DNA of 64,000 bases from Minisyncoccota bacterium (GTDB taxonomy: Bacteria > Patescibacteriota > Minisyncoccia > Phycocordibacterales > UBA9973), in contig JBAZXO010000001.1 in NCBI GenBank assembly GCA_041659785.1, positions 19,795-83,794 of the forward strand. Direction: 5' to 3'. How positions within the stretch are numbered: position 1 is the first letter of the stretch; each line of letters starts with the position of its first letter. The notes beneath the pieces were generated by a model that searched no databases, was not told the DNA's origin, and saw nothing but the letters and a program-made list of their open reading frames with translations. Below, in pieces: positions 1-42,424 of this stretch. A program made the translations under genes and the position numbers.

Positions 1-141
1 CATGCTAGAACCAAAGCGAAAGAAATTTTTACTAATGCCTTACTTGGGCTCATTTATGCCGTAGCCGCTTTTCTTATTATTAGGACGATATTGTCAATCT
101 TAGGTTACAGTGGAAGCTGGATTGGCTTTAATCCTTTATAG
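1..141 (+). CDS. C-terminal fragment of a TrbC/VirB2-like (T4SS-type) pilin paralog; the CDS starts upstream of the window
   Basis: Frame 1 reads ...AKEIFTNALLGLIYAVAAFLIIRTILS...* with stop at 139-141. This matches the C-terminal EAKK-hydrophobic helix pattern of the downstream paralogs. Confidence 0.5.
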   Translation, partial: HARTKAKEIFTNALLGLIYAVAAFLIIRTILSILGYSGSWIGFNPL

Positions 142-143
142 CT

Positions 144-548
144 ATGATTATTCTTAATATAAGATATAATATAATTATGAAATTTATTAATAAAAATTTG
201 CATAGATTAGTTCTATTATTTTATGTTTTTCTTGTGCCTATTGTTTCTTTTGCACAAGGTCAAAATCCTCCTGCCAGCGCAGGGGGAAGAATTGAAAATC
301 CAATACCAAGGATAACTTCAATTCCTGTTCTTATTCATGATATTTTAGTAGGCGCAATTAAAATTGGCATACCTGTTATAGCGCTTGCTGTTGTTTATTC
401 TGGTTTTCTCTTTGTTTTTGCTAGAGGTAATTCAGAAAAGCTCGGAAAGGCCAAAGAAGCACTTATGTATACTTTGATCGGTGCGGCAATATTATTAGGG
501 TCATATGCTATAGCAAATTTGATAAATGCTACTGTGCAAGCACTATAA
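144..548 (+). CDS. TrbC/VirB2-like conjugative-pilin family small membrane protein (alternative start at 177, MKFINK)
   Basis: Sec-type signal peptide (..VSFAQG) followed by two hydrophobic helices separated by a short charged loop (..RGNSEKLGKAKEALMY..). This is the architecture of the T4SS pilin-like family; the gene starts 2 nt after the upstream stop. Confidence 0.6.
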   Translation: MIILNIRYNIIMKFINKNLHRLVLLFYVFLVPIVSFAQGQNPPASAGGRIENPIPRITSIPVLIHDILVGAIKIGIPVIALAVVYSGFLFVFARGNSEKLGKAKEALMYTLIGAAILLGSYAIANLINATVQAL

Positions 549-594
549 GTTTATAAAGTTGAAAGTTATAAAGTTCATAAAGTAAACAAATAAT

Positions 595-1401
595 ATGAAA
601 AAAAAATTACTAAAATCTGTTTATAAGTTTTTATCAATATTTTCTTTTCTAGCTCTAATCCCAATTCTTACTTTTGCTGCAGGACCTTCATGTCCAGCTA
701 GTGGTATAGGTAAATTAATTTGCCAAATACAAAATATTCTTAATTCGATCATACCTGTCCTCGTATCACTTGGTGTAGTTTATTTTATATGGGGGGTGGT
801 TCAATATGTTATCGCTGACGGAGAAGAAGCAAAAAAGAAAGGCAAGGACATAATGATTTATGGAGTCATAGGTTTCACTGTCATTGTGGGCTTGTGGGGA
901 TTTGTGAATATACTTGTTAATACCTTTGGCCTTAGTGGAACAGTCGCTCCATCTCTTTCACCGGTAGCTGGTACGAGTTCTACTTGTACCATGGGAACCA
1001 ATTTTCAAGGTGTTTTGGGTTATGTAACTTGTATTATAAATAATTCTGTAATTCCTCTTATCTTTGCTTTGGCTACCGTGATGTTTATTTGGGGTGCTGT
1101 TAACTTTTTTATAATCAATGCTGACGAAGAAGCAAAGAGAGCTCAGGGCAAGCAGTTCATGATTTGGGGGATTATTGCTCTTGCTGTGATGCTTTCTGTT
1201 TGGGGGCTTGTGGGTATACTTAGTAGTACTTTTGGAGTAAATAGTTCAATTCTACCTCAAGTAAGACCTCCAGGCTCTAGCTCTTCGACGAGTGGAGGTC
1301 CTACAGATACAGGTGGAGGAAATACAGGGGGTGGTAATTTTTGCTATGATGAATTTGGGCAAATCACATCTACTATACCTATAAATGGAACTTGCCCCTA
1401 A
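595..1401 (+). CDS. tandem double-domain TrbC/VirB2-like pilin protein (two pilin modules fused, G/S/T-rich C-terminal tail)
   Basis: Signal peptide, then two internal repeats: IPVLVSLGVVYFIWGVVQYVIADGEEAKKKGKDIMIYGVIGFTVIVGLWGFVNILVNTFG and IPLIFALATVMFIWGAVNFFIINADEEAKRAQGKQFMIWGIIALAVMLSVWGLVGILSSTFG. Confidence 0.6.
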   Translation: MKKKLLKSVYKFLSIFSFLALIPILTFAAGPSCPASGIGKLICQIQNILNSIIPVLVSLGVVYFIWGVVQYVIADGEEAKKKGKDIMIYGVIGFTVIVGLWGFVNILVNTFGLSGTVAPSLSPVAGTSSTCTMGTNFQGVLGYVTCIINNSVIPLIFALATVMFIWGAVNFFIINADEEAKRAQGKQFMIWGIIALAVMLSVWGLVGILSSTFGVNSSILPQVRPPGSSSSTSGGPTDTGGGNTGGGNFCYDEFGQITSTIPINGTCP

Positions 1402-1452
1402 AATTTGTAAGATGTATAATTAAAAGATATTATTAGTATTATAAGGTCGCGT

Positions 1453-1515
1453 TTCCGCCAAAGGCGGATAAAATTATTAGAAGATTATTATTAGCTTGCC
1501 CGTCCTTTGGCGGGG
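1453..1515. repeat. two GC-rich mini-palindromes (ccgccaaaggcgg at 1456-1468; cttgcccgtcctttggcgggg at 1494-1515) immediately upstream of ATG 1523
   Basis: Both are read directly. The second is near-identical to copies in grpE (33126-33147) and pepN (55987-56008). The first resembles 30787-30808. Confidence 0.7.
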
Positions 1516-1522
1516 AAAAAAT

Positions 1523-1912
1523 ATGAAAAAGAAATTAATTGTGTTGTCAGGTTTTGCTTTGAGTTTAGCTCCGGTTGCTGCATTCGCACAAGTTAGTGCT
1601 GTAAGTGGGAACAGTTGCCCTCCTGGTTTAGCAGTTACAGATTTGCCAAGTTTGTTGTGTAAAATTGGCTCACTTCTTAATGCTGTCGTTCCTGTTTTAA
1701 TTGCTTTGGGTGTAGTTTATTTCGTATGGGGAGTTATCACTTATGTTATATCAAGTGATGAGGAAGCAAAGAAAGCTGGTAGAGATAGAATAATCTACGG
1801 TATCATTGGCTTGGCTGTCATTATTGCTATGTGGGGACTTGTAGGTATTTTGACTAAAACATTCAACGTAAGTAACTCTGGTACAATTACTCTACCAACA
1901 TTGAATCAATAG
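1523..1912 (+). CDS. TrbC/VirB2-like pilin paralog (the ORF track starts at TTG 1496; ATG 1523 is the likely true start)
   Basis: MKKKLIVLSGFALSLAPVAAFA signal peptide. Conserved VPVLIALGVVYFVWGVITYVISSDEEAKKAGRDRIIYGIIGLAVIIAMWGLVGIL block. Confidence 0.6.
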   Translation: MKKKLIVLSGFALSLAPVAAFAQVSAVSGNSCPPGLAVTDLPSLLCKIGSLLNAVVPVLIALGVVYFVWGVITYVISSDEEAKKAGRDRIIYGIIGLAVIIAMWGLVGILTKTFNVSNSGTITLPTLNQ

Positions 1913-1929
1913 ACTGTTAATTTTTTAAA

Positions 1930-2253
1930 ATGGATTTATTTTCTACAAAAATAGCTTTTGCTGCTTCGACTACCTTTGATGGATTCATCGGGAATGTTGA
2001 TACGATGATTGTAAATCCTCTTATTGATCTTTTGTTTGCTTTAGCAGTTGTGTATTTTCTTTATGGTGTATTTGAATTTCTTTCAAATCAAGAAAATGAA
2101 GAGAAAAAAACGACTGGTAAGCAACACATGATCTGGGGTATCGTCGGTATTACTATTATGTTAGGAGTCTGGACTATCCTAGGTATTGTTCTAAAAACTC
2201 TCAACATACAAGGTATAGATCCAGAAAATAGTAAAGTTCAACTTACTCCTTAA
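1930..2253 (+). CDS. TrbC/VirB2-like pilin paralog (shorter N-terminus)
   Basis: IDLLFALAVVYFLYGVFEFLSNQENEEKKTTGKQHMIWGIVGITIMLGVWTILGIV block homologous to the neighbours. Confidence 0.55.
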   Translation: MDLFSTKIAFAASTTFDGFIGNVDTMIVNPLIDLLFALAVVYFLYGVFEFLSNQENEEKKTTGKQHMIWGIVGITIMLGVWTILGIVLKTLNIQGIDPENSKVQLTP

Positions 2254-2347: not shown

Positions 2348-2863
2348 TTATTGCCACCAACGGAAATAGATCTTTTCTCCTCCAAGAGGGTAGACGAGAT
2401 AATTTCCCGCTGGCATTTTCCACCACACTTCCTTCTTCGCCCCGATGAAAGGGCCAGTGTCGTCAAAGTAGATTTTCTTGTTTTTAGCAAAAACGTATCG
2501 TGCTGGCTGTGGTGAATCGTTTGGATTTTCACCACTAGTTGGACGAAGGTACGTTTTCATTGGGTCGATCCACGCTTCCAGCCCCTTCTCTTTTGTTGCA
2601 TAGCCTTCTCCTGAGGTTGGGTATTCGGGTGCCACTCTTGCTGGTAGCGGTGGTATTCTGGGCGTCGTGGTCGCCTTATAACTTTTGTAGGCATAAGAGA
2701 CAAAACACGATGTCATTCCCAGAAGTAGTGCTACTACCGCAAGCTTCGTAACGATTTCCATCCAGTTGATGGAAGGGATGTTAGGTCGTGAGGGTCGCCA
2801 TCCAGTTTTCACCATGATGGCGATTCCAACAATAACGATGAAAGCGATTATGCTTAATGTCAT
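2348..2863 (-). CDS. hypothetical two-TM membrane protein with a C-terminal W/Y-rich soluble domain (possible partner of the SPFH protein)
   Basis: ORF with two N-terminal hydrophobic helices. It overlaps the upstream gene by 4 nt (ATGA), which suggests an operon. Local GC is about 48% against about 33% for the flanks. Confidence 0.4.
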   Translation of the reverse strand: MTLSIIAFIVIVGIAIMVKTGWRPSRPNIPSINWMEIVTKLAVVALLLGMTSCFVSYAYKSYKATTTPRIPPLPARVAPEYPTSGEGYATKEKGLEAWIDPMKTYLRPTSGENPNDSPQPARYVFAKNKKIYFDDTGPFIGAKKEVWWKMPAGNYLVYPLGGEKIYFRWWQ

Positions 2864-3912
2864 TTATCACCTCCAGTTTTCAGGCCGAGCATTGTGTTGG
2901 GGTTACCCAAGACTAGGGTGCCCTGTACTTTGGCAAGTTCTTTCACTGCTTCCGTTTGGACGCGAGTATTTGCATCTGGTACGAGCTCAGTAATGTTGCC
3001 TTGTTCATCAGCTTTCGCGAGACCTGTTTTTACTAGACGTTTTCTTTCAGCCTCTGCAGCGAGTTCTGTTACTTTTGCAGCACCTTCTGCGGTGTGTACA
3101 GTTGCCTTAGCTTGCTGTTCTGCCTCTTTGACTGAGGTAACGGCTTTATTAAGCTCATGAGAGAATACAATCTGTTTAATGTATGCTTCACTAAGCTTAA
3201 TACCTCCACCTCCTTCTCTTTTCTCTATCTCTTTCCTGAATTCTGTCTCGAGCGTTGCATTGGTGGTGTTGAGGTTTCGTAAAGCTTTGGCTGGAGTTAC
3301 TTTGGAGAAGTCCTCACTACAGACTCGAATTGCTCGATCGCTCATGACTTGTCTGACTTTATCGGTTGTTCCGAAAACTCTTCGGAATACCATCATGTCT
3401 TCGATTTGCCAGCTTATGACCGGCACAACCTCAGCGACCATTGGGATGTTATAAGGATCCTTCTTCTCTTCATCAGAATCTGAAGAGTCTACCGGTCCGA
3501 ATTTAATTCGAATCGGAGGGAACATGCCGTCTGGCACTTTTTCCTTGTCGTCATTGCGAAAGATTTTTTCAGGGTCGGCGGGAAGCTCGTCCTGAAAGAG
3601 ATTCGCTGTTTCTTTATAAACTTTTGAAATTCCCGCCGGGGCAAAATATAGCCCTGGTTTTAAATTGCTTACGGGTTTACCAAAAATCTCGATCATGGCA
3701 ACTTCATCAGTTTTGATTGTGCCAAAACTGAATACTAGATAGGCCGTAACTAATGCTAACAGAACTGCTCCCGTATTGACACCGTATAGATTTATCCCAC
3801 TGAGCATCAGAACGACGCTAACGATGAATAAAGCAATTAAAAGAGAACCTATAAAGAATCTCATGGTATTTCCTTTCTTGCGCACGACGGCGCGAAAAGT
3901 GCTAAAGAGCAC
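2860..3912 (-). CDS. SPFH/band-7 (stomatin/prohibitin/HflK-like) membrane protein
   Basis: N-terminal TM helix. The C-terminal region (GIKLSEAYIKQIVFSHELNKAVTSVKEAEQQAKATVHTAEGAAKVTELAAEAERKR) is typical of the SPFH domain end. GC-rich relative to the genome. Confidence 0.55.
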   Translation of the reverse strand: MLFSTFRAVVRKKGNTMRFFIGSLLIALFIVSVVLMLSGINLYGVNTGAVLLALVTAYLVFSFGTIKTDEVAMIEIFGKPVSNLKPGLYFAPAGISKVYKETANLFQDELPADPEKIFRNDDKEKVPDGMFPPIRIKFGPVDSSDSDEEKKDPYNIPMVAEVVPVISWQIEDMMVFRRVFGTTDKVRQVMSDRAIRVCSEDFSKVTPAKALRNLNTTNATLETEFRKEIEKREGGGGIKLSEAYIKQIVFSHELNKAVTSVKEAEQQAKATVHTAEGAAKVTELAAEAERKRLVKTGLAKADEQGNITELVPDANTRVQTEAVKELAKVQGTLVLGNPNTMLGLKTGGDK

Positions 3913-4060
3913 ATTTGGTTGGTTTTATTCAATTTGCAAAGAATGGAGTAGAGACTTTTAACCATACGAATTGTATCATAGAATAACAAAAAAGTCAACC
4001 CCGAACCAAAGCACAGCTTGGTACGGGGCAGGCCCCTTATGCGTTTTTAAACAATAAAAA

Positions 4061-4087
4061 ATCCCCTTAAAAGGGGATTTTTTATTT
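4061..4087. terminator. intrinsic terminator downstream of the minus-strand surface-protein gene
   Basis: aatcccctt-aa-aaggggatt hairpin flanked by an A6 run and tttttatt. Confidence 0.6.
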
Positions 4088-4094
4088 ACTTACG

Positions 4095-4865
4095 TTATGC
4101 GTGCTTCATTGGTGACTCGTCGTAGTTTTTCTTTGCACCAAAAAGTTTTCTAACCAAGATAACCAATAGCAAAATGATTATCGCAAACAAGATCCATTGT
4201 ATTAGACCAGAAGGCATAAAGCTGTTTGATCCGAAGATAGCATTGGATGCGAGGTTGCTGTAGTTTGAATTTGCATTAGTAGTTGTCGAATTTGTTGTGT
4301 TGGTTGTGTTCTTGGAAGTAGAGGTATTGGTATTTTTATTCGTATTACTTTTTGTTGCAGAAGAATTAGAGGTATTACTGTTTCCATTGCTATTAACATT
4401 ACCATTAGTGTTGTTGTTTCCTGTATTTGTATTTGCAGTAGCAACGACATTTCTTATAGTAAAGTAGGAAGCGTTAGAATATCCTCCACCTGGAGCCTCG
4501 TTGAAAACATTAACATAGAATCCATTACCATTAGAAAAATCATTTCCGTTTAATTGAACTTGGACATGAGAATAATCTATGAAAGTTGTATAACGATTGG
4601 AACCATTTACTCTAACGACGGAAGTAGGGATAAAACCACTTCCAGTAATAGTAATAGTGTTAGAAGTAATGTTTTCGTTTATAGAACTTGGACTAATTGA
4701 ATTAATTACTGGTGTTGGATTTTCAACAGAACTAGGTGTATACGCAAGCGTAGCAGAAGCCGTAGCTGGTATAACTAGTAAGCTGAATGCCAATATAGAC
4801 AATATTTTCAAGCCGAAAACTATTGAATTGTTGTTTGTTTTATTCATATGGGGATAGTATAGCAC
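4095..4865 (-). CDS. secreted/anchored surface protein with a long N/T/S-rich low-complexity region, a possible IPT/TIG-like segment and a C-terminal TM anchor
   Basis: Signal peptide (..PATASATLA). ITITGSGFIPTSVVRVNGSN motif. About 90 aa of N/T/S repeats. C-terminal IQWILFAIIILLLVILVRKLFG. Confidence 0.45.
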   Translation of the reverse strand: MLYYPHMNKTNNNSIVFGLKILSILAFSLLVIPATASATLAYTPSSVENPTPVINSISPSSINENITSNTITITGSGFIPTSVVRVNGSNRYTTFIDYSHVQVQLNGNDFSNGNGFYVNVFNEAPGGGYSNASYFTIRNVVATANTNTGNNNTNGNVNSNGNSNTSNSSATKSNTNKNTNTSTSKNTTNTTNSTTTNANSNYSNLASNAIFGSNSFMPSGLIQWILFAIIILLLVILVRKLFGAKKNYDESPMKHA

Positions 4866-18338: not shown

Positions 18339-19748
18339 ATGGCTGGTGCAGAAAAAAAATCAGGTGGATTCATAGATTCTATTGAAGAAGGAATAAAAGA
18401 ATATTGGCCTTGGATCTTGGTCATAGTTGTTGTCTATTTTATTTTTCACTTTGATTTTCAATATACTCTAATAAGAAATTTACTGCCTTTAATAGGTACG
18501 ATATTTTTGGGCTGGATAGCTTGGAAAATGTGGGTTCATTATGTACAACAAGATTTTATTTCTGGAATAGATTTTGTTTTGCTTGAGATAGTTCCTCCAC
18601 GTGAAGTGTTACGTAGCCCTAAAGCTATGGAACTTTTTTTTACTAATGCCCTTTATCATTGGAGTCAGAAAGGAGGTCGTGAGGAGTATTGGCAAGGAGC
18701 TGTGTGGTTTTGGTTCTCTTTAGAAATTGCATCTATTGATGGGCAAGTACATTTTTATATACGAACACCGACGCGTGTAAGGGGTCTAATAGAGACACAA
18801 ATATACGCACAATATCCACAAGCACAAGTGAAAGCTGTGGAAGATTATACCCTCGCAGTAGATAAAATTTCTCCTGAGGGTGAATGGAACGCTTGGGGTT
18901 GTGAGTTTGCCCTAAAAAGACCAGAAGCGTTTCCAATTAAGACATATGTGGACTTTGGTTTAGATAAAGATCCTAAAGAAGAATTTAAAGTTGACCCCAT
19001 TTCTCCTGTTATTGAGCTTTTTGGCTCACTTCAGAAAGGAGAACAAATGTGGATGCAGATTGTTGTTAGGCCTTCTAAAAAATCATATCATACTAAGGGT
19101 ACATGGTTTGGACATCATGATTGGGTACAAGAAGCCAAGAATGAATTTTTTGTATTCATGAAGGATTACATGACTATAAAGGGTGAAGGTCATACACTTG
19201 GTAAAGATGCAAGAATTGAAATTCGTTCTCAGCCACACTTAGATACAACAATTAAAGCAATGAATGCAAAAATTACTAAGATTGGCTTTGATACTGGAAT
19301 TCGAGTTTGTTATGTGGCAAAAAAAGAAGTATATGATATGAGTAATAGAAGAAATATTCGTCTTATCTTTCGTCAATATGCAAATCCGGAAAATAATGAA
19401 CTTGAACGCGTAAATTCTACTCAAGCAGATGCTTTCAATACTTCTTTTTTCCCGCTTTCTAACGAAAAAGTTATGATATTAGCTGATAGAATGGTTCACG
19501 AATTTCGTGAACGAGGTTTCTTTCATCTTCCTATGAGGCATAATCTTTTTAATAATCATACGATTACAGGATTTACTTCTTTAGTCGTTAAACAATTTTG
19601 GCTTCCATATTTTCACCCCCCAACATTTGTTTTAAATGTAGAGGAGCTTGCTACATTGTGGCATTTCCCTGGTCAGATATTGAAAGTTCCTACGCTTGAA
19701 CGTATTGAGTCTAAGGAAGCTTCTCCTCCTACAAACTTGCCTATATAA
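18339..19748 (+). CDS. hypothetical membrane protein (two N-terminal TM helices, large W/Y-rich soluble domain)
   Basis: 469-aa ORF; no domain recognised. Confidence 0.4.
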   Translation: MAGAEKKSGGFIDSIEEGIKEYWPWILVIVVVYFIFHFDFQYTLIRNLLPLIGTIFLGWIAWKMWVHYVQQDFISGIDFVLLEIVPPREVLRSPKAMELFFTNALYHWSQKGGREEYWQGAVWFWFSLEIASIDGQVHFYIRTPTRVRGLIETQIYAQYPQAQVKAVEDYTLAVDKISPEGEWNAWGCEFALKRPEAFPIKTYVDFGLDKDPKEEFKVDPISPVIELFGSLQKGEQMWMQIVVRPSKKSYHTKGTWFGHHDWVQEAKNEFFVFMKDYMTIKGEGHTLGKDARIEIRSQPHLDTTIKAMNAKITKIGFDTGIRVCYVAKKEVYDMSNRRNIRLIFRQYANPENNELERVNSTQADAFNTSFFPLSNEKVMILADRMVHEFRERGFFHLPMRHNLFNNHTITGFTSLVVKQFWLPYFHPPTFVLNVEELATLWHFPGQILKVPTLERIESKEASPPTNLPI

Positions 19749-25196: not shown

Positions 25197-26282
25197 ATGA
25201 ATAAAAAAATATTAAGTGTTTTAGTTTTTTCTTTGTTCGTTTTAGGTGCCACAAAAGCTTTCGCTTCTTTAACCTTCAGCTCAGCTGCTATTACAGGAGA
25301 TGCTGCTTCTACGATAGATGTAGGTGCAGGGAATGCTTTGTCATTACAGACTACGAACAACGGAGCGATAACCACAGGAACAGGTTTAGTTACATTAGGA
25401 GGAAGTTTAAATGCTGCAGGTATTATTACTTTACCCATGACTACAAGTTCAACGACTGGTGTCATCTATAAAGGAGCAACACCTTTTATTCATAATTTTA
25501 ATTTTGGAAATAATGGAACAGTTACAACTGATGGTAAAAATACCTTCGTTGGAATAAATGCTGGTAATTTTACAATGGGGAGTACTGCGACATTAACATA
25601 TGAAAGCAGTAGTAATGTTGGTATAGGTCAAGATGTCTTAACAATTAATACTAAGGGATATGGTAATACTGCAACAGGTTGGTCTGATTTAAAACTTAAC
25701 ACTACTGGTAGTTGGAACACTGCATATGGGGTAACGGCACTTTATAATAATACAACGGGTAGTAATAATGTAGCAATTGGTGGAGAGGCATTAGGTTTTA
25801 ACACCATAGGTGGAGAAAACACTGCAGTTGGTGTTTATGCTCTTGATTTCAATACTACAGGAAGTCTTAATACCGCTAATGGTATGTACTCTCTTAGCTC
25901 TAATAGCACTGGTTCTCGCAACGTTGCATTGGGATACGCCGCGGGAGCGTACGAATTAGGGTCTAGTTCATTTTACGTAGATGCTTATGACCGAGCAAAC
26001 ACTGCAGGGGATAAAGCAGGGGCTTTGCTATACGGAACATTTAATGCGACGCCAAGTCTTCAGACTTTAACTATCAATGGAAAGATTACTGCAAGTAATG
26101 CTATGAATAAAGGCACAGTAGCTCTCTCTGCTGGCACAGCCACAGTCACAGTTGTCTCTGGTGCTGTCTGCGTAGTTAGCGAAACGACAACTGCTACAAA
26201 TGGAGTTAAGGGTGCAGTCGTCGGCACAACGCTTACAATCACGGGTACTGGTACAGATACTATTGCTTATATTTGTTTGTAA
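25197..26282 (+). CDS. secreted G/T/N-rich repeat surface protein (paralog A)
   Basis: Signal peptide MNKKILSVLVFSLFVLGATKAFA. Degenerate NTxxG..AL repeats. The N-terminal 55 aa and the promoter are duplicated at 36875. Confidence 0.5.
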   Translation: MNKKILSVLVFSLFVLGATKAFASLTFSSAAITGDAASTIDVGAGNALSLQTTNNGAITTGTGLVTLGGSLNAAGIITLPMTTSSTTGVIYKGATPFIHNFNFGNNGTVTTDGKNTFVGINAGNFTMGSTATLTYESSSNVGIGQDVLTINTKGYGNTATGWSDLKLNTTGSWNTAYGVTALYNNTTGSNNVAIGGEALGFNTIGGENTAVGVYALDFNTTGSLNTANGMYSLSSNSTGSRNVALGYAAGAYELGSSSFYVDAYDRANTAGDKAGALLYGTFNATPSLQTLTINGKITASNAMNKGTVALSAGTATVTVVSGAVCVVSETTTATNGVKGAVVGTTLTITGTGTDTIAYICL

Positions 26283-26330: not shown

Positions 26331-27530
26331 ATGGGTATTTTTTCTGGACACAAAAAAGAGAATGAATTGATATTAGTTTTTAATATTGGCTCGTCTTCTG
26401 TGGGCGGAGCACTTTTTGAAACACAAAGCTCCGGTATCCCTAAGATAATCTTATCTGTTCGTGAACCGATACAGCTCGAGAAGACTATAGATGTAGATCA
26501 TTTTTTACTGTTAACGATAAAATCTTTAGAAATTGTTTCTAAAAAAATTTTTAAGAAGGGGCTAGGTGCTCCAGAGCAAGTATTCTGTGTTCTTTCTTCG
26601 GCTTGGTATGCTTCACAAACAAGGATAATTAATTTTAAAAAAAATACCCCTTTTGTTTTTACTGAAAAATTAGCTGATGAGTTAGTAAAAAAAGAAATAA
26701 AAATATTTGAAGAAGAACATTTGTTGAAATATAACACCGTTGACAATAGGGTCCGCACTATCGAACTTAAAAATATCAAAACGATGTTGAATGGTTATGA
26801 GACATCCAAGCCATTAAACCAAAAGACAAAAGAATTAGAAATGACTATTTTTGTATCTATCAGTGGAGAACAAATATTAAAAAAAATAGAAGATACGATA
26901 GGGAAATATTTTCATTTCAAACAAATAAAGTTCTCTTCTTTCGTATTGTCTTTTTTTACAGTGGTACGAGACATGTTCGTAAAACAAGAGAATTTCCTTT
27001 TATTAGATATTGGAGGGGAAGTAACAGATATATCTATGATAAAGAAGAATACTCTACGAAATTCAATATCTTTTCCTCTTGGTCGTAATTTCTTAATACG
27101 AGGAGTTGCAGAAGATCTAGATTGTACTTTAGATGAAGCTTATTCCTTCATTTCTCTTTTTAAAGATGGGCACGCAGAAGAATCTATTGCAAAAAAACTT
27201 TCATTAATCCTAAATAAATTAAGAGCACAATGGCTAAAAGAGTTTCAGGATTCTTTAGCAAATTTATCAAATGATATTTCTATACCCTCGACTATTTATA
27301 TAGCTATCGACAAAGACTTGGTGGACTTTTTTACTGAAACAATTAAAACTGAACAGTTTAGTCAGTACACATTAACAGAATCAAAATTCGAAGTTATCTT
27401 TTTAAGCACTGAGTTGCTTCATGGTACTGCAGTATTTAAAGAAGATGTAATACGCGAGCAGTTTCTGATTATTGACTCTATTTATATTAATCGTTTTCTT
27501 TCTAATCCCGCTATAGCGGAGCGAGCATAA
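26331..27530 (+). CDS. actin-fold ATPase of the FtsA/PilM family
   Basis: LVFNIGSSSVGGALFE (phosphate-1-like) and LLDIGGEVTDISMI (phosphate-2-like). Confidence 0.45.
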   Translation: MGIFSGHKKENELILVFNIGSSSVGGALFETQSSGIPKIILSVREPIQLEKTIDVDHFLLLTIKSLEIVSKKIFKKGLGAPEQVFCVLSSAWYASQTRIINFKKNTPFVFTEKLADELVKKEIKIFEEEHLLKYNTVDNRVRTIELKNIKTMLNGYETSKPLNQKTKELEMTIFVSISGEQILKKIEDTIGKYFHFKQIKFSSFVLSFFTVVRDMFVKQENFLLLDIGGEVTDISMIKKNTLRNSISFPLGRNFLIRGVAEDLDCTLDEAYSFISLFKDGHAEESIAKKLSLILNKLRAQWLKEFQDSLANLSNDISIPSTIYIAIDKDLVDFFTETIKTEQFSQYTLTESKFEVIFLSTELLHGTAVFKEDVIREQFLIIDSIYINRFLSNPAIAERA

Positions 27531-27531
27531 T

Positions 27532-28782
27532 ATGGCAAAACACTTATTAGAAGACATGGTGAGGGTAAAAAATATCAAAAAAACTCCCATCAAAATAGAA
27601 CCCCCAAAGATAGAGCCTTTTAAAAATGAGCGTATACCTGAGATAGAAGTAAAATATTCTAAAAATAAATCCAGATACATGCTTTGGTTCGTAGCATTAA
27701 TTTCTGTCGTATTTTGTTTTTTTGCCATTTCTTTTTTATTTGCAAAAGCAGAAATCTCGGTAAATCTAAAAACAAAAGATGTTGTTTTAAATGAAAACTT
27801 ATCTGCTCTTATAAATTCTAATACAGACGTATTGCCTTTCGAGCTCACTCATCTTTCAGGTGATACATCGAAGACAATCGTTTTGGAAGAGAGGGATTTA
27901 AAAGAAAATGCTAAAGGCAAGATTGTTGTTTATAATAAATTTAGTTCTAGTCCTCAAACTCTCGCTATTGATACACGCTTAGAAGGATCCAATAATAAAA
28001 TTTATAAAACAAAAACAAAGGTAATCATTCCAGGAATGAGTAAAGCTGGAATTCCGGGTCAAATTGGCGTGGACATATATGCCTTAGAACAAGGAGCAGC
28101 GTATAATAGTGCTCCACTTGATTTTAAGATAGCAGCCTTTAAGGGAACGAGTAAATATGCAAAATTTTATGGCAGATCAGTGGGGGATATTACAGGTGGT
28201 ATTGTTGGTAAATCTCGCCAAATTAGTGATTTACAAAAAACTCAAACAACAGATGAGCTCAAGCCAATTTTACAAGACAAGCTTTACAATAAAATTGCGA
28301 GTCAGATTCCAGGATTTTTGTTATATAAGGATGCTATGTTTTTAAATGTTGAAGATATTACCACTGGGGCCGTAGCTCCCGATGGTTCAGCTGTTCTAAC
28401 TTTAAAAGGCACTCTTTACGGTATCATTTTTAATGAAAAAAAATTAACTGATAAAATAGCTAAAGACAATATTGAAAAATATGATAATAGTGAAGTTTAT
28501 ATACCAAACATTAAGAGTTTAAACTTTTCTCTTTCCGACAAAGGAAATATCGTATTTGATAGTGTAAAAAATATAAATTTCACTTTGTCGGGCCCTACGA
28601 AGATTGTCTGGAAACTTGATATAAATAAATTTACTACAGATTTACTTGGTAAACCTAAAAAAGACTTTAATCAACTTCTTTCAGAATATCCCAGTATTAG
28701 TTCTGCTCTTGTGAAGTTGAGCCCACCCTGGATACAATCTATTCCCAATAAAGCTAAAGATATAAAAATAACAGTAAATTAG
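27532..28782 (+). CDS. hypothetical bitopic membrane protein (cytoplasmic K/P-rich N-terminus, one TM, large extracytoplasmic domain)
   Basis: ORF directly downstream of the PilM/FtsA-like gene (1-nt gap); no domain recognised. Confidence 0.35.
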   Translation: MAKHLLEDMVRVKNIKKTPIKIEPPKIEPFKNERIPEIEVKYSKNKSRYMLWFVALISVVFCFFAISFLFAKAEISVNLKTKDVVLNENLSALINSNTDVLPFELTHLSGDTSKTIVLEERDLKENAKGKIVVYNKFSSSPQTLAIDTRLEGSNNKIYKTKTKVIIPGMSKAGIPGQIGVDIYALEQGAAYNSAPLDFKIAAFKGTSKYAKFYGRSVGDITGGIVGKSRQISDLQKTQTTDELKPILQDKLYNKIASQIPGFLLYKDAMFLNVEDITTGAVAPDGSAVLTLKGTLYGIIFNEKKLTDKIAKDNIEKYDNSEVYIPNIKSLNFSLSDKGNIVFDSVKNINFTLSGPTKIVWKLDINKFTTDLLGKPKKDFNQLLSEYPSISSALVKLSPPWIQSIPNKAKDIKITVN

Positions 28783-33101: not shown

Positions 33102-33740
33102 ATGGTAGATAAAGAAGAAAAGAAACTTGCCCCGTCCAAAGGCGGGGATAATGAAATTCCTACAGAGGGAGATACTTCCGAGGTTCTTGAATTTGAGTTC
33201 AACGAAGACGGGGAAGAAGATTTAAAGAAAACTCTAAAGAAATTTAGAGCGGACATAAAAGAACTCAAGAAAGAAAACTACGAGCTTAACGCCACAAGTA
33301 TTGAGTATCTTACTGGCTGGCAGAAAGAGCGAGCAGAATTCGCAAATTATAGAAAACAAGAAGATGAAAGAAAAGCAATCTTTTCCGAAGCGATGCGTGA
33401 GAGAATACTTACTCGTTTTTTGACCGTCTCTGATAGCTTCAACATGGCTTTCGCAAACAAAGAGGCTTGGGAAAAAGTCGATGATAATTGGCGTAAAGGT
33501 GTGGAATATATTTATGCTCAGATGAATGGAATATTTGAAGAATATGGAGTGAAACCCGTAGGTGAAGTAGGTGAGAGTTTTGACCCCAATATTCATCAAT
33601 CTGTCGATGTTGTAGAAACAGACAAAAAAGAACTAGAACACAAGGTGGCAACTGTGATACAAAAAGGCTATAAATTAGGCGAGCGCGTCATGCGTCCAGC
33701 TAGGGTAAATGTGTACGAGTTCAAAGAAAAAGTAGTATAA
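33102..33740 (+). CDS. grpE: nucleotide exchange factor GrpE (the N-terminal tail contains an in-frame family A palindrome)
   Basis: C-terminal ..KVATVIQKGYKLGERVMRPARVNV..; the element at 33126-33147 encodes KKLAPSKGGDNE. Confidence 0.85.
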   Translation: MVDKEEKKLAPSKGGDNEIPTEGDTSEVLEFEFNEDGEEDLKKTLKKFRADIKELKKENYELNATSIEYLTGWQKERAEFANYRKQEDERKAIFSEAMRERILTRFLTVSDSFNMAFANKEAWEKVDDNWRKGVEYIYAQMNGIFEEYGVKPVGEVGESFDPNIHQSVDVVETDKKELEHKVATVIQKGYKLGERVMRPARVNVYEFKEKVV

Positions 33741-33749
33741 TAAGATAAA

Positions 33750-33818
33750 CCCCCACACCTATTTCAAGTGCACATCAAATATATACTAAGCTTAATATTT
33801 TAAAAATAGGTGTGGGGG
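33750..33818. repeat. perfect 15-bp inverted repeat (cccccacacctattt / aaataggtgtggggg) with a 39-nt AT-rich loop downstream of grpE
   Basis: Read directly. Candidate terminator or small structured RNA. Confidence 0.6.
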
Positions 33819-33853
33819 TAAAGGTCGTTTGTTGGTTATAATATCTTATTTTT

Positions 33854-34159
33854 ATGGTATTTATTTACACAACTTGCGCGGATTCTATTGAGGCACAACT
33901 TTTAGGTAAATTAATTATCGAAAAAAAGCTCGGTGTCTCTATAGACTATTGGCCAATAGACTCTATCTATAATTGGGAGGGTAATATAAAAGAAGTGTCA
34001 CAAATGATGCTAATGATTACTACTCTTGAATCTAAGCTCGAAGAAGTGAATGATTTAGTTTCTAAACATCACAGCTACTCCACACCAATAATTGCTGGTG
34101 TCGATGTTCGTAGAATTAACAGAGCTTATAAAGAGTGGATGACCAAAAATATTACCTAA
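33854..34159 (+). CDS. cutA: CutA1-like divalent-cation tolerance protein
   Basis: About 100 aa. ..IDSIYNWEGNIKEVSQMMLMITTLE..HSYSTPIIAGVDV resembles the CutA1 family. Confidence 0.55.
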   Translation: MVFIYTTCADSIEAQLLGKLIIEKKLGVSIDYWPIDSIYNWEGNIKEVSQMMLMITTLESKLEEVNDLVSKHHSYSTPIIAGVDVRRINRAYKEWMTKNIT

Positions 34160-34236
34160 ATGCATATTTACGCCATGGCGTATATATAAAATATTTCTTA
34201 AACTATCATATATGATATATTAAGAAATTAAATGTT

Positions 34237-34770
34237 TTATTTTCCGAAAGTTTTAAATAAAACTTTCTTACTCTCTTCGTCTATAAATTCGGTGACAATG
34301 ATCATCATTTCTGTAGTTAGTCCTAAATCTTTTTTAATATTCGTAAATAAATGTTCGTATGGGAAAGGGGAGATCCATGCAGAATTTTTTAAACATATGA
34401 AGCCCGCTTTTTTTAAAAGGTAGCGCAAGCTCTCGCGTTCAGATTTTCTATCTTCAGGAAGATCTAGGAGAATAATTCTCCATAAACCATCCCAAGAAGT
34501 ATTTACCAGAGTCGTATCATTGTCTAACTTTAAGCTATTCATTTTCTTTCTTCCTTCTTTTGTCAGCCTAGCATATTCGTTTTGTGGGGATGGTATTTGC
34601 TCTATGAGTCCAGCTTCCTTTAAGCCCTTTAAAGAGCGTGTAAGGGCATATTTGTCCGCCTGAGAGCAGTCCTTTTGGTTTATCCTTTCTGTTAGTTCTG
34701 ATAGTGAAATAGCTGATTTTTCCCCTAAAATCTTGAGTATTTTCTTGGAATATTTTGATTTGCTTGACAT
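34237..34770 (-). CDS. PaaX-family-like winged-helix transcriptional regulator, divergently transcribed from dnaK
   Basis: N-terminal wHTH (..SLSELTERINQ..ALTRSLKGLKEAGLIEQ). C-terminal DGLWRIILLDLPE..RESLRYLLKKAGFICLKNSAWISP resembles the PaaX C-terminal domain. Confidence 0.4.
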   Translation of the reverse strand: MSSKSKYSKKILKILGEKSAISLSELTERINQKDCSQADKYALTRSLKGLKEAGLIEQIPSPQNEYARLTKEGRKKMNSLKLDNDTTLVNTSWDGLWRIILLDLPEDRKSERESLRYLLKKAGFICLKNSAWISPFPYEHLFTNIKKDLGLTTEMMIIVTEFIDEESKKVLFKTFGK

Positions 34771-34857
34771 AGATATATACTATCATATATACTACTTTTA
34801 TACAAATAATTAGTGGTCGCGAAATATAAGTTAAATTATAAAATAATCATATAACAT

Positions 34858-36750
34858 ATGAGTAAAATAATAGGTATAGATTTGGGTACAACAAATTCGG
34901 CTGTCGCTATCATTGAAGGAGGCGCACCAAAGATTATTGAAAATGTCGAAGGAAACAGAACGACACCTTCTGTGGTTGCCACAGCAAAAAATGGTGACCG
35001 CATCGTCGGCTTACTTGCTAAGAGGCAAGCAGTTACAAATCCAGAAAATACAATTGCTGAAATCAAGCGCTTCATGGGGCATCGTTTTGATGATCCAGAA
35101 GTTCAGAAAGATCATCAGACTGCAGCATTTAAAATTGAAGCCGGAGATGGTGGTGGAGTAAAAGTAAAAATGACAGATAAGTTTTACCGACCAGAAGAAA
35201 TTTCTGCGATGATCTTACAGAAAATTAAAGCAGATGTGGAAGCAAAGTTGGGTGAAAAGATTACTGAAGCTGTCATCACTGTGCCAGCATATTTCAACGA
35301 TGCTCAAAGAAAGGCTACCAAGGATGCAGGAGCTATCGCAGGACTTGATGTGAAGCGTATCATCAATGAACCTACAGCTGCAGCACTTGCTTATGGTTTC
35401 GATAAAAAGAAAAATGAAAAAGTTGTCGTCTACGATTTCGGTGGAGGAACTTTCGATGTGTCCGTCCTTGAAATAGGTGATGATGTCATAGAAGTAAAAT
35501 CAACCGATGGAGACAGTCACATGGGTGGAGGTGATATTGATAGAAAAATAATTGCATGGATTGCTGACGAATATAAAAAGGAATCAGGTATTGATGTAAC
35601 GAAAGATCCACTTGCACACCAGAGACTAAAAGAAGCAGCAGAAAAAGCTAAACATGAACTTTCTACAACAATAGAAACTGAAATAAATATCCCATTTATA
35701 ACTTCCGATGCATCTGGACCAAAACACTTACTCTTGAAGATGACTCGTGCCATGCTCGAATCTCTTGCGAAAGAATACATTGATCGCTCTATCGAAATCA
35801 CGAAGAGAGCCCTCGCTGCTTCTCCATTTAAAATGAATGAGATAAATGAAATCATCATGGTGGGTGGTCAGACCAGAATGCCAGCTATCGTCTCTGCTGT
35901 TAAAAATCTCTTCGGCAAAGAGCCAAATATGTCTATAAATCCTGACGAAGTCGTAGCCCTCGGTGCTGCAGTGCAGGCTGGAGTCCTAGCCGGTGATGTG
36001 CGAGACGTGCTTCTTCTTGATGTTATACCTCTATCTTTAGGTATTGAGACATTGGGTGGAGTGTCTACAAAGTTAATTGAAAGAAATACAACTATTCCAT
36101 CTTCTAAATCTCAAGTATTCTCTACCGCTGCTGACAATCAGACTTCTGTAGAAATACATATCGTTCAAGGTGAACGTCCAATGGCTTCCGACAACAAATC
36201 TCTCGGACGATTTATCTTGGACGGAGTTCCACCAGCACCTCGTGGCATGCCACAAATCGAAGTCGCTTTCGACGTCGATGCGAACGGAATCTTGAATGTC
36301 ACCGCGAAGGATAAAGCTTCAGGAAAGAGCCAATCAATAAAAATTGAAGCAAGTTCTGGACTTAAAGACGAAGATATTAAAAAGATGCAAGCCGATGCTG
36401 AGCTTCATGCCGAAGAAGATAAAAAGAAGAAAGAAAATGCAGAAGTGAAAAATACTGCAGAGATGATTATCTACACTGCAGAGAAAGCATTGAAAGATAA
36501 TGAAGCAAAAATTCCTGCAGAATTAAAGGATGAAGTAAATGCTAAAATTACTGCACTCCGTGGAGTAAAAGATGGCACTGATGGTGAAGCGATAAAGAAA
36601 GCTACTGAAGAACTTTCAACAGAGATGTCTAAAATCGGTGAAGCTGTATCTAAGGCCGGCGCCGAGACTCCGGGAGCAAGTGCTCCAGAAGAGCAACCCG
36701 CAGAAGTAAAAGAAAAGACAGAAGGTGAAGAAGAAACACCAAAAGCGTAA
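34858..36750 (+). CDS. dnaK: molecular chaperone DnaK (Hsp70)
   Basis: [23 protein letters not shown], and the full Hsp70 architecture with an acidic C-terminal tail. Confidence 0.95.
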
Positions 36751-36782
36751 TTGTTCAACACTCGGTGTTAAACATTCAAAAA

Positions 36783-36809
36783 CCGCTAGGTAAGACCTAG
36801 CGGTTTTTG
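36783..36809 (+). terminator. intrinsic terminator downstream of dnaK
   Basis: ccgctagg-taaga-cctagcgg hairpin followed by ttttt. Confidence 0.65.
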
Positions 36810-36874
36810 TTGCTTTTGTCTACGGGGAGGGGTTATAATTAAAAGGTTAATTTATCAGTTTAATTTTTTAATGT

Positions 36875-37861
36875 ATGAATAAAAAAATATTAAGTTTGTT
36901 TGTTTTATTGGTATTGGTTTCGGGGGCAACTAAAACTTTTGCATCTTTAACATTTAGCTCTGCTGCCATTACAGGAGACACAGCTTCTACGATAGACGTA
37001 GGTGCAGGAAATGCGTTATCGTTACAGACTACAAATAATGGGAATATTATTACAGGAAGTGGAAATTTTGGAGTTGGTATTGGTATACCTACACAAAAAC
37101 TTGATGTTGTCGGTTTTGTTAATACTGATCTTGGTTATAAACAAGCAGGAAATACAATTCTTTTTACCAAAACTTCTAATCATTCTACTGCTGTGGGTGC
37201 TTCTTCTGCAGCTTCATGGATGGCTACTACGCCTCTTGATTATTCTGCAACTGCTGTAGGCTATGGCGCTCTTGCAACAACTCCTGTAGATGTTGGAGGT
37301 TTAGCATGGGATAATTCTGCTTTCGGAGTTAATTCTCTTGCAAGTACTACAACAGGTGGATATAACGTTGCAGTTGGTGGTTATTCTCTTTTTTCTAACA
37401 CTACAGGTTGGTTTAACACTACAATAGGTGATTCATCTCTTGGTTCAACCACTACAGGATGGGGTAATAGTGCTAATGGGAATGGGGCTCTTTTATCTAA
37501 CACCACAGGCTCATACAATACAGCACTCGGCATGAGTGCTCTTTATTATAATTCAGTGGGTTCCAATAATATTGCCTTGGGGCATAATGCTGGTAGTTAC
37601 GAAACAGGTTCAAATTCTTTTTATGTAGACAATCAAGATCGTTTAAATACTGCAGGAGATAAAGCGAATGCTATTCTTTATGGAATAATGGCACCAGCGG
37701 CAGTTAATCAGACATTGCATATCAATGCAGTAGTGATGCCAATCCAGGCTACGACAGCTGCTGCACCAGCTTATGTAAAGGGAGGAATGTATTTTGATAC
37801 AACTTTAAATAAGTTAAGAGTAGGGGGAGCGACTGGTTGGGAAACAGTTACTTCATCATAA
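36875..37861 (+). CDS. secreted G/T/N-rich repeat surface protein (paralog B of 25197)
   Basis: Upstream region plus the first ~55 aa are about 80% identical at nucleotide level to 25120-25370; the remainder is divergent. The -10 TATAAT lies at 36834-36839, preceded by GGGGAGGGG. Confidence 0.5.
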   Translation: MNKKILSLFVLLVLVSGATKTFASLTFSSAAITGDTASTIDVGAGNALSLQTTNNGNIITGSGNFGVGIGIPTQKLDVVGFVNTDLGYKQAGNTILFTKTSNHSTAVGASSAASWMATTPLDYSATAVGYGALATTPVDVGGLAWDNSAFGVNSLASTTTGGYNVAVGGYSLFSNTTGWFNTTIGDSSLGSTTTGWGNSANGNGALLSNTTGSYNTALGMSALYYNSVGSNNIALGHNAGSYETGSNSFYVDNQDRLNTAGDKANAILYGIMAPAAVNQTLHINAVVMPIQATTAAAPAYVKGGMYFDTTLNKLRVGGATGWETVTSS

Positions 37862-37930
37862 AAAGTAATTTATAAAAAGCCCCCATTGGGGGCTTTTGGT
37901 TTTAGAAGATAAATTGTATAATAGTATTAT

Positions 37931-40072: not shown

Positions 40073-40075
40073 TAT

Positions 40076-41539: not shown

Positions 41540-41554
41540 TTTTCAAACGTAATT

Positions 41555-42424
41555 ATGTCAAAAGATTATTATGAAATTTTAGGCGTTAATAAAGGTGCGT
41601 CAAAGGACGAAATTAAAAAGGCTTTTTATAAGTTGGCGCACAAATATCATCCTGATAAAAAGGGTGGGAATGAAGAGCAGTTTAAAAAGGTAAACGAAGC
41701 CTATCAAGTTCTCTCTGATGATGCGAAACGCGCAAAATATGATCAATATGGCTCAGGCTTTGAGAGTGCGGGAGCGGGAGGGTATGGAGGAGGTCAGGGC
41801 TTTGGAGGGTTTGATTTCAATGGAGGTTTTCAAGGAAGTGGTGCCGATTTTGATTTCGGAAACCTAAATGACATATTTAGTGATTTTTTTGGTGGCGGGG
41901 GTGGAATGGGTGGAGGTAGACCTCAGTCTCGTCGTGGACGCGATATTTCTACTGAGATACAGATTTCTCTCACTGACTCTATGTTGGGTTTAAATAAAAA
42001 GATTTTACTCACAAAGATGTCGACTTGTCTTACTTGTAATGGTTCTGGCGCGAAGGCTGGATCAAAGATGGAAACCTGTAAGCATTGTAATGGCCAAGGT
42101 AAAATTCACGAACAAAAGAGAACAATCTTTGGGAACATTGGGAGCACAAGAGCTTGTGAAGTTTGTTTCGGTACAGGAGAAGTTCCAAAAGAAAAATGCG
42201 AAACATGTAAAGGTAAAGGTGTACTCCGTCGTGAAGAAGAAGTCTCAATCAATATTCCTGTCGGCATACGTGATGGGCAGACATTAAAAATGTCAGGTTA
42301 TGGAGAAGCAGTTTCGAGAGGTACTACAGGAGATCTCCTCATACAAATAAAAGTAAAAATACCTAATAAAATTTCTAAAAAAGCCCGTGAGCTTTTAGAA
42401 GAGCTTAAAAAAGAAGGAATTTAG
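41555..42424 (+). CDS. dnaJ: chaperone DnaJ, short form (J domain, G/F region, four CxxCxGxG zinc-finger repeats, truncated C-terminal domain)
   Basis: [13 protein letters not shown] domain; G/F-rich linker; [32 protein letters not shown]. Confidence 0.85.

Follow-up and report, generated by a model that had tools for sequence, protein, structure and literature searches.

A tandem array of pilin-like genes occupies the first 2,314 nucleotides (nt), plus strand, of a 64,000-nt stretch from the genome of a Minisyncoccota bacterium (GenBank assembly GCA_041659785.1, contig JBAZXO010000001.1, positions 19,795 to 83,794; this entire stretch is the window, to which all coordinates refer unless another locus is named). 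The array consists of five consecutive coding regions, one 3' gene fragment and four complete genes, denoted here p0 to p4, that together encode six pilin modules, two of which are fused within p2. Judged by profile matches, these genes are pilin-like paralogs of the TrbC/VirB2 superfamily. In the reading that we favor, with a probability of about 0.6, their products form a heteromeric VirB2-type filament or conduit that is assembled by a type IV secretion system (T4SS) whose machinery is encoded elsewhere, with p3 as the major subunit. Of the two possibilities raised in the initial annotation of this sequence, a heteropolymeric filament and an antigenically variable battery of paralogs, the former is the one best supported by the new evidence, namely, fixed positional orthology and gene fusion. 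The window is a piece of a candidate phyla radiation (CPR)/Patescibacteria chromosome, and positions 1-2314 are the distal part of a deeply conserved operon of Paceibacteria ('Nomurabacteria'-type).

The array genes follow one another at spacers of 35 (or 2), 46, 121 and 17 nt, which corrects the range of 2-100 nt given initially. The p0 fragment (array position 1; 1-141) retains the 3' end of its gene, 46 codons and a stop at 139-141 in frame 1, and encodes the loop and the second hydrophobic helix. It is 76% identical to the C-terminus of a 145-residue ortholog in the close relative L001 (L001 9135-9572), a protein with a signal peptide, a Cys pair and two helices that scores below threshold for both TrbC and T4SS_pilin (21.9 bits each, E ~2e-4). 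The p1 gene (position 2; 177-548) encodes 123 amino acids (aa) with a signal peptide, two hydrophobic helices and no Cys, its hydrophobic segments lying at aa 8-26, 63-81 and 95-113. An alternative ATG start at 144 was rejected in favor of 177 on the strength of the ortholog length, 123 aa, and the shape of the signal peptide. The fused double pilin p2 (595-1401) has 268 aa and covers positions 3 and 4 with its modules N and C (p2N and p2C). The p3 gene (position 5; 1523-1912), for which a TTG start at 1496 was rejected in favor of 1523 on ortholog lengths and signal-peptide shape, encodes 129 aa with a signal peptide, a hypervariable exposed segment from Cys32 to Cys46, two very conserved helices and a DEEAKKAGR loop. 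The last gene, p4 (position 6; 1930-2253; 107 aa), lacks a canonical signal peptide: its N-terminus, MDLFSTKIAFAAS, has neither an n-region nor an h-region, there are only two hydrophobic segments (aa 26-44 and 70-88), and its orthologs, of 104-111 aa, are likewise leaderless. The array ends in a bidirectional intrinsic-terminator-like hairpin (2290-2314) that it has in common with a convergent gene at 2348-2863.

All four complete genes score above the gathering threshold of the T4SS_pilin family (PF18895; 26.6 bits), namely, p1 with 28.2, p2 with 66.2 in two stretches, p3 with 40.2 and p4 with 32.2 bits, and p1 alone also passes the TrbC/VirB2 family (PF04956; 29.2 bits against 27.9). Furthermore, p2 reaches 41.8 bits, against a cut-off of 40, with NCBIfam NF045849 (Mbov_0395 family pilin-like conjugal transfer protein), although only as the sum over its two modules; p3 (31.5 bits) and p4 (33.8 bits) remain below that cut-off, with E values of 1e-7 to 2e-8, and p1 has no match. 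The hidden Markov model (HMM) search thus upholds the assignment to a TrbC/VirB2-like family in the initial annotation, along with its call of at least five consecutive paralogs on the same strand, one of them cut by the window edge. A module HMM run over the entire window matched these six modules and nothing else, and the row of pilin modules is real and far from chance. The locus corresponds to an array as delimited for Patescibacteria (PMC12102498), that is, two or more tandem PF18895/PF04956 genes with at most one non-pilin gene in between and low mutual identity: there are five genes with six modules that are 15-50% identical to each other, p2N and p3 being the closest pair with 50%. A GenBank protein, MFA5931774.1 ('MAG: pilin [Candidatus Paceibacterota bacterium]'), is 100% identical to p3, and the best homologs of p2 come from metagenome-assembled genomes of Paceibacterota and 'Candidatus Nomurabacteria', several of them already annotated 'pilin'. 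A tblastn search with p3 against 72,556 plasmids gave no match and thus no connection with known conjugative plasmids.

Each module is predicted to be a helical hairpin in which a short charged loop connects two hydrophobic helices. The module initially described for all paralogs, with a signal peptide, a hydrophobic helix, an EEAKK loop and another hydrophobic helix, stands only in part. Two helices and a loop are seen in all six modules; the EEAKK-type loop is clear in p2N, p2C, p3 and p4 but weaker in p1 and in the p0 fragment; and canonical signal peptides are present only in p1 (SFA/QG), p2N (TFA/AG) and p3 (AFA/QV), being missing from p4 and from p2C. The latter is internal to its protein and hence leaderless, and several unfused relatives likewise have no leader. 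The shared features go beyond a generic topology with two transmembrane helices and include a P before helix 1, W/YG in helix 1, a D/E-E-x-K-K/R-x-G-K/R loop, and GxxG and W-G in helix 2.

We compared 42 loci, comprising the closest homologs on long contigs (L001-L003), 37 loci represented by one genome per species (L004-L040), and L164 and L165. In nearly all of L001-L040 the array reads pilin, pilin, double pilin, pilin, pilin, in some cases with one more pilin ahead of the double pilin, for a total of six or seven modules; overall, array size ranges from 6-8 modules up to ~14 in L164. This gene order recurs in the 37 species-level genomes and in metagenome contigs, and in 42 of 42 loci, even distant ones whose GyrA shares no more than 56-69% identity, gyrA, a methyltransferase gene and a gene for a solute-binding protein (SBP_bac_1) immediately precede the array. 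Among the 21 genomes with six modules, mean identity is 53-68% between modules at the same position as opposed to 17-51% between positions, and for each of the 126 modules (126/126) the nearest neighbor in another genome sits at the same array position. Identity between positions is equal within and between genomes, so there is no sign of gene conversion or concerted evolution.

When the window is compared with L001, the pilins are 67-84% identical, IF-2 and ClpB 89-94%, and an adjacent surface protein, orf256, 64%; for orf171 no match is detectable in L001. By this comparison the pilins are conserved about as well as ordinary neighboring genes, in keeping with ordinary purifying selection, and the six modules are ancient paralogs that are fixed in order and do not exchange sequence. 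Paralogs that predate speciation, keep their order, are not homogenized and evolve under purifying selection are the opposite of an interchangeable battery and are what would be expected of distinct subunits of one assembly. The variation that was found is allelic divergence between lineages and is concentrated in one exposed p3 loop and in the C-terminal p2 tail. As a side observation, the position-2 pilin of L002 (9566-9983) is apparently degraded, with the C-terminal part alone in frame, whereas L003, from the same sample, has an intact copy. The gyrA, methyltransferase and SBP_bac_1 genes lie upstream of the window (L001 4818-9130), and the SBP_bac_1 gene ends a few to ~60 nt before the first pilin; its product may be a functional partner of the pilins or may simply be co-transcribed with them.

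In p2, a signal peptide (aa 1-28) is followed by module N (aa 29-115), module C (aa 128-218), with an exposed linker at aa 111-136, and a Pro/Ser/Gly-rich C-terminal tail (aa 219-268). The predicted topology, from N to C, is signal peptide, outside segment, helix, inside Lys-rich loop, helix, outside linker of ~26 residues, helix, inside loop, helix, outside tail; it is self-consistent, and all six Cys, in the pairs 33/43, 131/147 and 249/267, fall into predicted outside segments, as do both Cys of p3 when its sequence is read in the same manner. An AlphaFold2 model of p2 has helices at 4-26, 38-73, 77-110, 137-174 and 179-212. When this model was compared with the PDB by Foldseek, the only matches were unspecific helical ones (best E 0.74), and the p2-family profile has no match among PDB sequences even at E 10. 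The two modules initially seen in the gene at 595-1401 are borne out by the two PF18895 stretches and by its homologs: among 755 found, the best 120 are all multi-module, 110 with two and 10 with three modules. On these sequence comparisons the two-module fusion is genuine and conserved. In the distant relatives L037 and L040, the equivalents of p2N and p2C are separate adjacent genes, which makes the fusion the derived state. The length of the p2 tail (1249-1398; L001 10700-11050) varies greatly, from 0 to 122 residues. In some relatives the tail takes the form of a Cys/Pro/Gly-rich module in which CP motifs recur, and it is a candidate for a part that makes contact or acts as an adhesin.

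Fusion of pilin modules is not confined to the double pilin. When a profile of the window modules was compared with 1.84 billion representative proteins, 25,172 clusters were retrieved at E <= 1e-3, and the top matches include proteins that carry 2-8 modules and one that carries 16 (Pfam counts 17 T4SS_pilin stretches in it). Examples of such poly-pilins, with 5, 6, 7, 8 and 16-17 modules, are P0302 (L166 10001-15328), P0272, P0278 (L164 10001-11821), P0256 and P0280. Their internal modules have diverged from each other, so they are not assembly artefacts. The 7-module protein P0278 of L164 occupies the syntenic slot of the double pilin of the window, and the 16-module P0302 sits in L166 among archaeal-type genes (ribosomal L39e, Cas4) and is apparently an archaeal protein. 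A double module at position 1 of L022 was rejected as an artefact, a run of N that bridges two genes. By the usual logic of gene fusion, fused modules would be physical neighbors at a fixed ratio. In the searchable literature we found no description of poly-pilins.

The p3 gene has regulatory signals of its own. A sigma-70-type promoter for p3 and p4 (TTGCCC-17-TATAAT, a 10/12 match to the consensus; 1392-1420, plus strand) overlaps the last codons of p2. Among 61 orthologous p3 leaders, a TAnAAT box at most 60 nt upstream is present in 58, an extended -10 element in 34 and a TTG -35 element in 24. The promoter is followed by a conserved 5' leader (1421-1522) with three copies of ATTATTAG (1429-1436, 1473-1480 and 1487-1494), one of TTATAAGGTCG (1439-1449), two variable GC hairpins and a G-rich putative ribosome-binding site (1511-1515). 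The motif set, ATTATTAG, then ATTAT[TA]AGGTCGC, then ATTATTAG again, is kept in the p2-p3 spacers of 31 of 41 loci, and the leader element is found in these spacers, with 1-3 copies of ATTATTAG, in many Paceibacteria contigs that have a GC content of 29-43% (L001-L038, L041-L118). In a metagenome scan with the leader pattern, matches preceded by TATAAT always have a p3 ortholog as the next gene, and 55 of 83 pattern matches have no adjoining pilin open reading frame (ORF) and are apparently chance or repeat matches in unrelated DNA. Across these contigs the leader is specific to the p3-type pilin gene, and it may be a DNA operator or an RNA element.

The GC palindromes initially placed before the third gene are there (1454-1468 and 1499-1515), although, more precisely, they lie within the 5' leader of p3 and vary between lineages. 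By prediction, the two can also form a duplex with one another beside the putative ribosome-binding site (-29.3 kcal/mol, z = -2.3). Among relatives, the hairpins are of at least three sequence types that are not related to each other, and many relatives lack them, so that they are best described as variable inserts in a conserved leader. An Rfam search with the p3 leader, at gathering thresholds and at E <= 1, returned nothing, with sub-threshold matches only over the terminator.

Conservation within the p3 protein is equally uneven. The helices, loop and signal peptide are ~85% conserved among orthologs, whereas residues 23-46, from the cleavage site to the second Cys, are only 46% conserved, and nearly all differences between close relatives fall there. 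From a conserved promoter and leader that are specific to this gene, combined with a conserved core and a hypervariable Cys32-Cys46 segment, we infer that p3 is the major subunit, expressed separately and probably at a high level, with a surface loop that evolves fast and is bounded by a disulfide. The p3 signal peptide (1523-1588; MKKKLIVLSGF...AFAQ) has a majority frequency of 0.85, similar to that of the transmembrane helices and unusual for a leader peptide, which hints at an extra role or at a constraint on the mRNA.

Taken together, these observations lead to the following model of the heteromeric filament or conduit. The pilins would insert into the cytoplasmic membrane with both ends outside and the Lys-rich loop inside, a topology indicated by the hydrophobic segments, the positively charged loops and the location of all Cys of p2 and p3 outside. 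Those with SFA, TFA or AFA sites would lose the leader peptide to signal peptidase, and a type IV secretion apparatus that is driven by VirB4, and whose genes would lie elsewhere in the genome, would then extract and stack the pilins. The product would be a heteromeric filament, or a conduit spanning the cell wall, directed towards the host cell. In this structure, p3 would be the abundant, surface-exposed major subunit, its Cys-bounded N-terminal loop being the fastest-diverging part, and p0, p1, p2 and p4 would be minor subunits specialized for priming or for the base or the tip. The fusion in p2 would fix a 1:1 pair of neighbors, and its variable Cys-containing tail may contact the partner cell. 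The view of the modules as a fixed heteromeric set derives from the conserved gene order, the same-position neighbors of all modules compared, the lack of concerted evolution and the conserved fusions of adjacent modules. A more specific version, which we put forward only tentatively, holds that the array encodes, instead of a homopolymeric pilus and variants held in reserve for it, a fixed hetero-oligomeric tube in which each of the six ancient paralogs has a defined place and the fusions (2, 3, 5-8 and ~16 modules) record who is next to whom. In that version, the p3 leader, with its ATTATTAG repeats and AGGTCGC, would be a dedicated regulatory element.

Several points weigh against the favored reading. 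Family searches detected none of VirB4, VirB6, VirB3 or VirB8 on any sizeable ORF of the window, and the genes tabulated for L001, L002 and L164 up to 10 kb from the array include none of them either. With no machinery near the array, the link to a T4SS is made by homology and literature only. Several modules are leaderless, unlike classical VirB2, TrbC and TraA; the confidence of the p2 model is moderate only (pLDDT, the predicted local distance difference test, ~70); the major and minor roles would follow from promoter structure and conservation; and, according to the literature, no T4SS pilus has been visualized in any Patescibacterium.

We rank as the main rival, although a rather unlikely one, a ring or short channel in which the hairpins would be packed side by side into a hetero-oligomeric tube of fixed stoichiometry that would belong to the T4SS translocon and sit within the membrane or just above it. 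The analogy would be with the c-subunits of rotary ATPases. In A/V-type ATPases, these are two-helix hairpins encoded as single genes or as concatenations of 2 to more than 10 hairpins; they have no homology to the array proteins and are ion-binding rotor rings rather than secretion components. Covalent concatenation of 2 to ~16 hairpins per polypeptide, the constant number and order of modules, and the lack of a leader peptide in several of them would all suit a ring, as would the fact that T4SSs of monoderms normally have no pilus and that none has been seen in Patescibacteria. The homology, however, is to pilus-forming families; the hypervariable, Cys-bounded exposed segments are what a surface structure would be expected to have; the linkers of 25-30 residues between modules also permit neighboring positions in a helical filament; and array size varies from 6-8 modules to ~14 in L164.

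The variation battery of the initial annotation would consist of interchangeable paralogs that are differentially expressed or recombined, yielding antigenic, phage-evasion or host-range variation in the manner of the VirB2 paralogs of Bartonella and Anaplasma. The idea has been raised for Patescibacteria (PMC12102498), the paralogs are very divergent, the internal promoter could permit differential expression, and copy number differs among lineages. We nevertheless consider it improbable for this array, given the strict positional orthology, the lack of any excess similarity among paralogs of the same genome, and a level of conservation similar to that of ordinary neighboring genes. Moreover, there are no silent or truncated cassettes other than the degraded copy in L002, two paralogs within one protein are incompatible with either-or use, and the fast-evolving parts, the p3 loop and the p2 tail, vary between lineages rather than between paralogs. 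Very improbable, finally, is the view that these are generic small two-helix membrane proteins with no role in secretion and that the pilin matches are purely compositional. Short hydrophobic hairpins do give weak, composition-prone HMM scores, p1 and p4 exceed the threshold by only 2-6 bits, and there is no T4SS machinery nearby; yet conserved non-hydrophobic positions are present, three independent curated models (PF18895, PF04956 and NF045849) match, and homologous arrays of Saccharimonadia lie within the T4SS cluster.

The array belongs to a kind that is already published, along with the variation hypothesis, and its novelty was overrated (PMC12102498, PMC10633639). Within the T4SS cluster of Southlakia epibionticum ML1, Wang et al. 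2023 (PMC10633639) found a row of predicted pilins that are essential. Quinonero-Coronel et al. 2025 (PMC12102498) screened 3,035 genomes of Patescibacteria for PF04956 and PF18895, found 441 VirB2 arrays of 2-11 genes in 383 assemblies, with a mean identity of 25% and a maximum of 54%, and explicitly suggested antigenic or host-range variation, drawing a parallel with Bartonella and Anaplasma. A 2025 review singled out the six Southlakia pilins, 'structurally conserved but sequence-divergent', as remarkable and speculated on a pilus conduit. The present array resembles these in its tandem PF18895/PF04956 genes on the same strand, its low paralog identity (15-50% as compared to the published mean and maximum), its chromosomal location without a relaxase, and its six modules, the number of pilins in Southlakia. 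It differs in that it is neither inside nor beside a virB4 cluster and is joined to gyrA, the methyltransferase gene and SBP_bac_1, and in that two of its modules are fused; the published variation hypothesis is unsupported by the data for this lineage. The published texts on Patescibacterial arrays make no mention of fused pilins, positional orthology, synteny with gyrA and SBP_bac_1, or the leader element. In the searchable literature there appears to be no description of the positional orthology, of fused and multi-module pilins, of the promoter and leader of p3, or of the invariant gyrA-methyltransferase-SBP context.

With the classical pilins VirB2 (Ti plasmid), TrbC (RP4) and TraA (F), and with archaeal CedA1/TedC (PDB 8dfu, 8dft), the array proteins share the plan of a small propilin, with a putative leader in p1, p2 and p3, two hydrophobic helices with a short basic loop, and Pfam membership. 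Classical conjugative systems, however, employ a single pilin gene beside virB3/virB4, whose product forms a homopolymer with lipid, whereas here there are six fixed paralogs, some leaderless, one fused pair, exposed Cys pairs, no adjacent machinery and a monoderm host. A further counterpart is Mbov_0395 of a Mycoplasma integrative and conjugative element (NF045849); both lineages are wall-poor or monoderm and have VirB4 of the mating-pair formation class FATA (MPF-FATA) type. The Mycoplasma protein, though, is encoded by a single gene beside VirB4 in that element, and p2 passes that model only as the sum of two modules. As a profile match, it fits the published MPF-FATA ancestry of Patescibacterial VirB4 and softens the published statement that monoderm T4SSs lack VirB2 homologs; we found no paper on a link between Mbov_0395 and Patescibacterial pilins. 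In function only, the array is also comparable to the pseudopili of type II secretion and to type IV pili, in which an abundant subunit and conserved, non-interchangeable minor subunits are encoded in an operon of fixed order. There is no relation in sequence or fold, those pilins having a class III leader, a single N-terminal helix and a globular head.

CPR/Patescibacteria, which live attached to other cells, make up a large part of bacterial diversity, and the T4SS with its pilin array is among the few systems shown to be essential for that way of life. The fixed, position-specific and partly fused paralogs of this locus constrain its product towards a heteromeric structure, as opposed to a variation battery. 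The locus also names a candidate major subunit, p3, and shows that multi-module poly-pilins are widespread. These constraints can be used in structural modeling, in the interpretation of cryo-electron microscopy data and in the choice of genetic targets. Should the array indeed encode a defined hetero-oligomeric tube, this would be a new architectural class within VirB2-type assemblies.

Two genes were initially proposed as the coupling ATPases that go with the array (37931-41539). The first (37931-40072, plus strand) encodes a VirD4/TraD-like P-loop ATPase of 713 aa with a CxxC-x17-CxxC zinc ribbon, and the second (40076-41539, plus strand) a VirD4/TraD-like ATPase of 487 aa; neither has a membrane anchor, there being no hydrophobic segment in either protein. 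The VirD4/TraD-type match itself stands. Against Pfam cut-offs of 20.5 (TrwB_AAD_bind), 20.1 (T4SS-DNA_transf) and 22 bits (TraG-D_C), the 713-aa protein scores 42.3, 29 and 24.4 bits, and the second scores listed for the pair are 24.7, 22.2 and 22.4 bits, which amounts to a match to type IV coupling protein domains. With the NCBIfam models for TraD/CD1115, the pair reaches 43-50 bits against cut-offs of 250-650, far below equivalog level. Furthermore, the two genes lie 36 kb from the pilins, flanked by dnaK, a gene for a secreted repeat protein and dnaJ, with no linkage to T4SS or relaxase genes. Their connection to the pilin array, as judged from these matches and their location, would be weak. 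In published work, Patescibacteria have 5,713 VirD4-like homologs, about two per genome, of which 148 are near virB4, and the one of Southlakia is not essential; VirB4 is present in most Patescibacteria, and the virB4 genes of Paceibacteria are mostly near dnaA.

The ATPase pair is part of a chaperone operon that is split by unrelated genes (33102-42424), in the order grpE, a PaaX-like gene on the minus strand, dnaK, the secreted repeat protein gene, the two anchorless VirD4-like ATPase genes and dnaJ. The repeat protein, encoded directly upstream of the pair (36875-37861), is a secreted Gly/Asn/Thr-rich ('NTTG') protein with a paralog at 25197-26282; the two are 49% identical and nearly identical over the first 57 residues. 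The paralog lies upstream of an FtsA/PilM-like gene (26331-27530) and a gene for a single-pass membrane protein (27532-28782). A 469-aa membrane protein (18339-19748) is very conserved in Paceibacteria, with 4,462 homologs and 66-84% identity among the non-identical ones listed; its only precomputed domain is PF26449, and it has no Walker motif. As a candidate T4SS component of the VirB4-N/TrsD-like kind it is unsupported, local searches having returned no Pfam, NCBIfam or PDB match.

The other genes of the window are housekeeping genes, among them those for IF-2, ClpB, DnaK/DnaJ/GrpE, tRNA synthetases, DnaB and FtsW. Within the array, a motif count finds three ATAAAGT repeats in the 46-nt spacer between p1 and p2 (553-583, plus strand); the repeat also occurs just 5' of pilin start codons in L028, L036 and L086, and there are 30 copies across the window as against 20 expected. 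Convergent with the array, on the minus strand (2348-4865), are the genes for a membrane protein of 171 aa that evolves fast, for a Band_7/SPFH protein and for a surface protein of 256 aa. A Band_7/SPFH protein adjoins the array in L004 and L164 as well, and the 256-aa surface protein carries 'choice-of-anchor Z' repeats and a C-terminal anchor.

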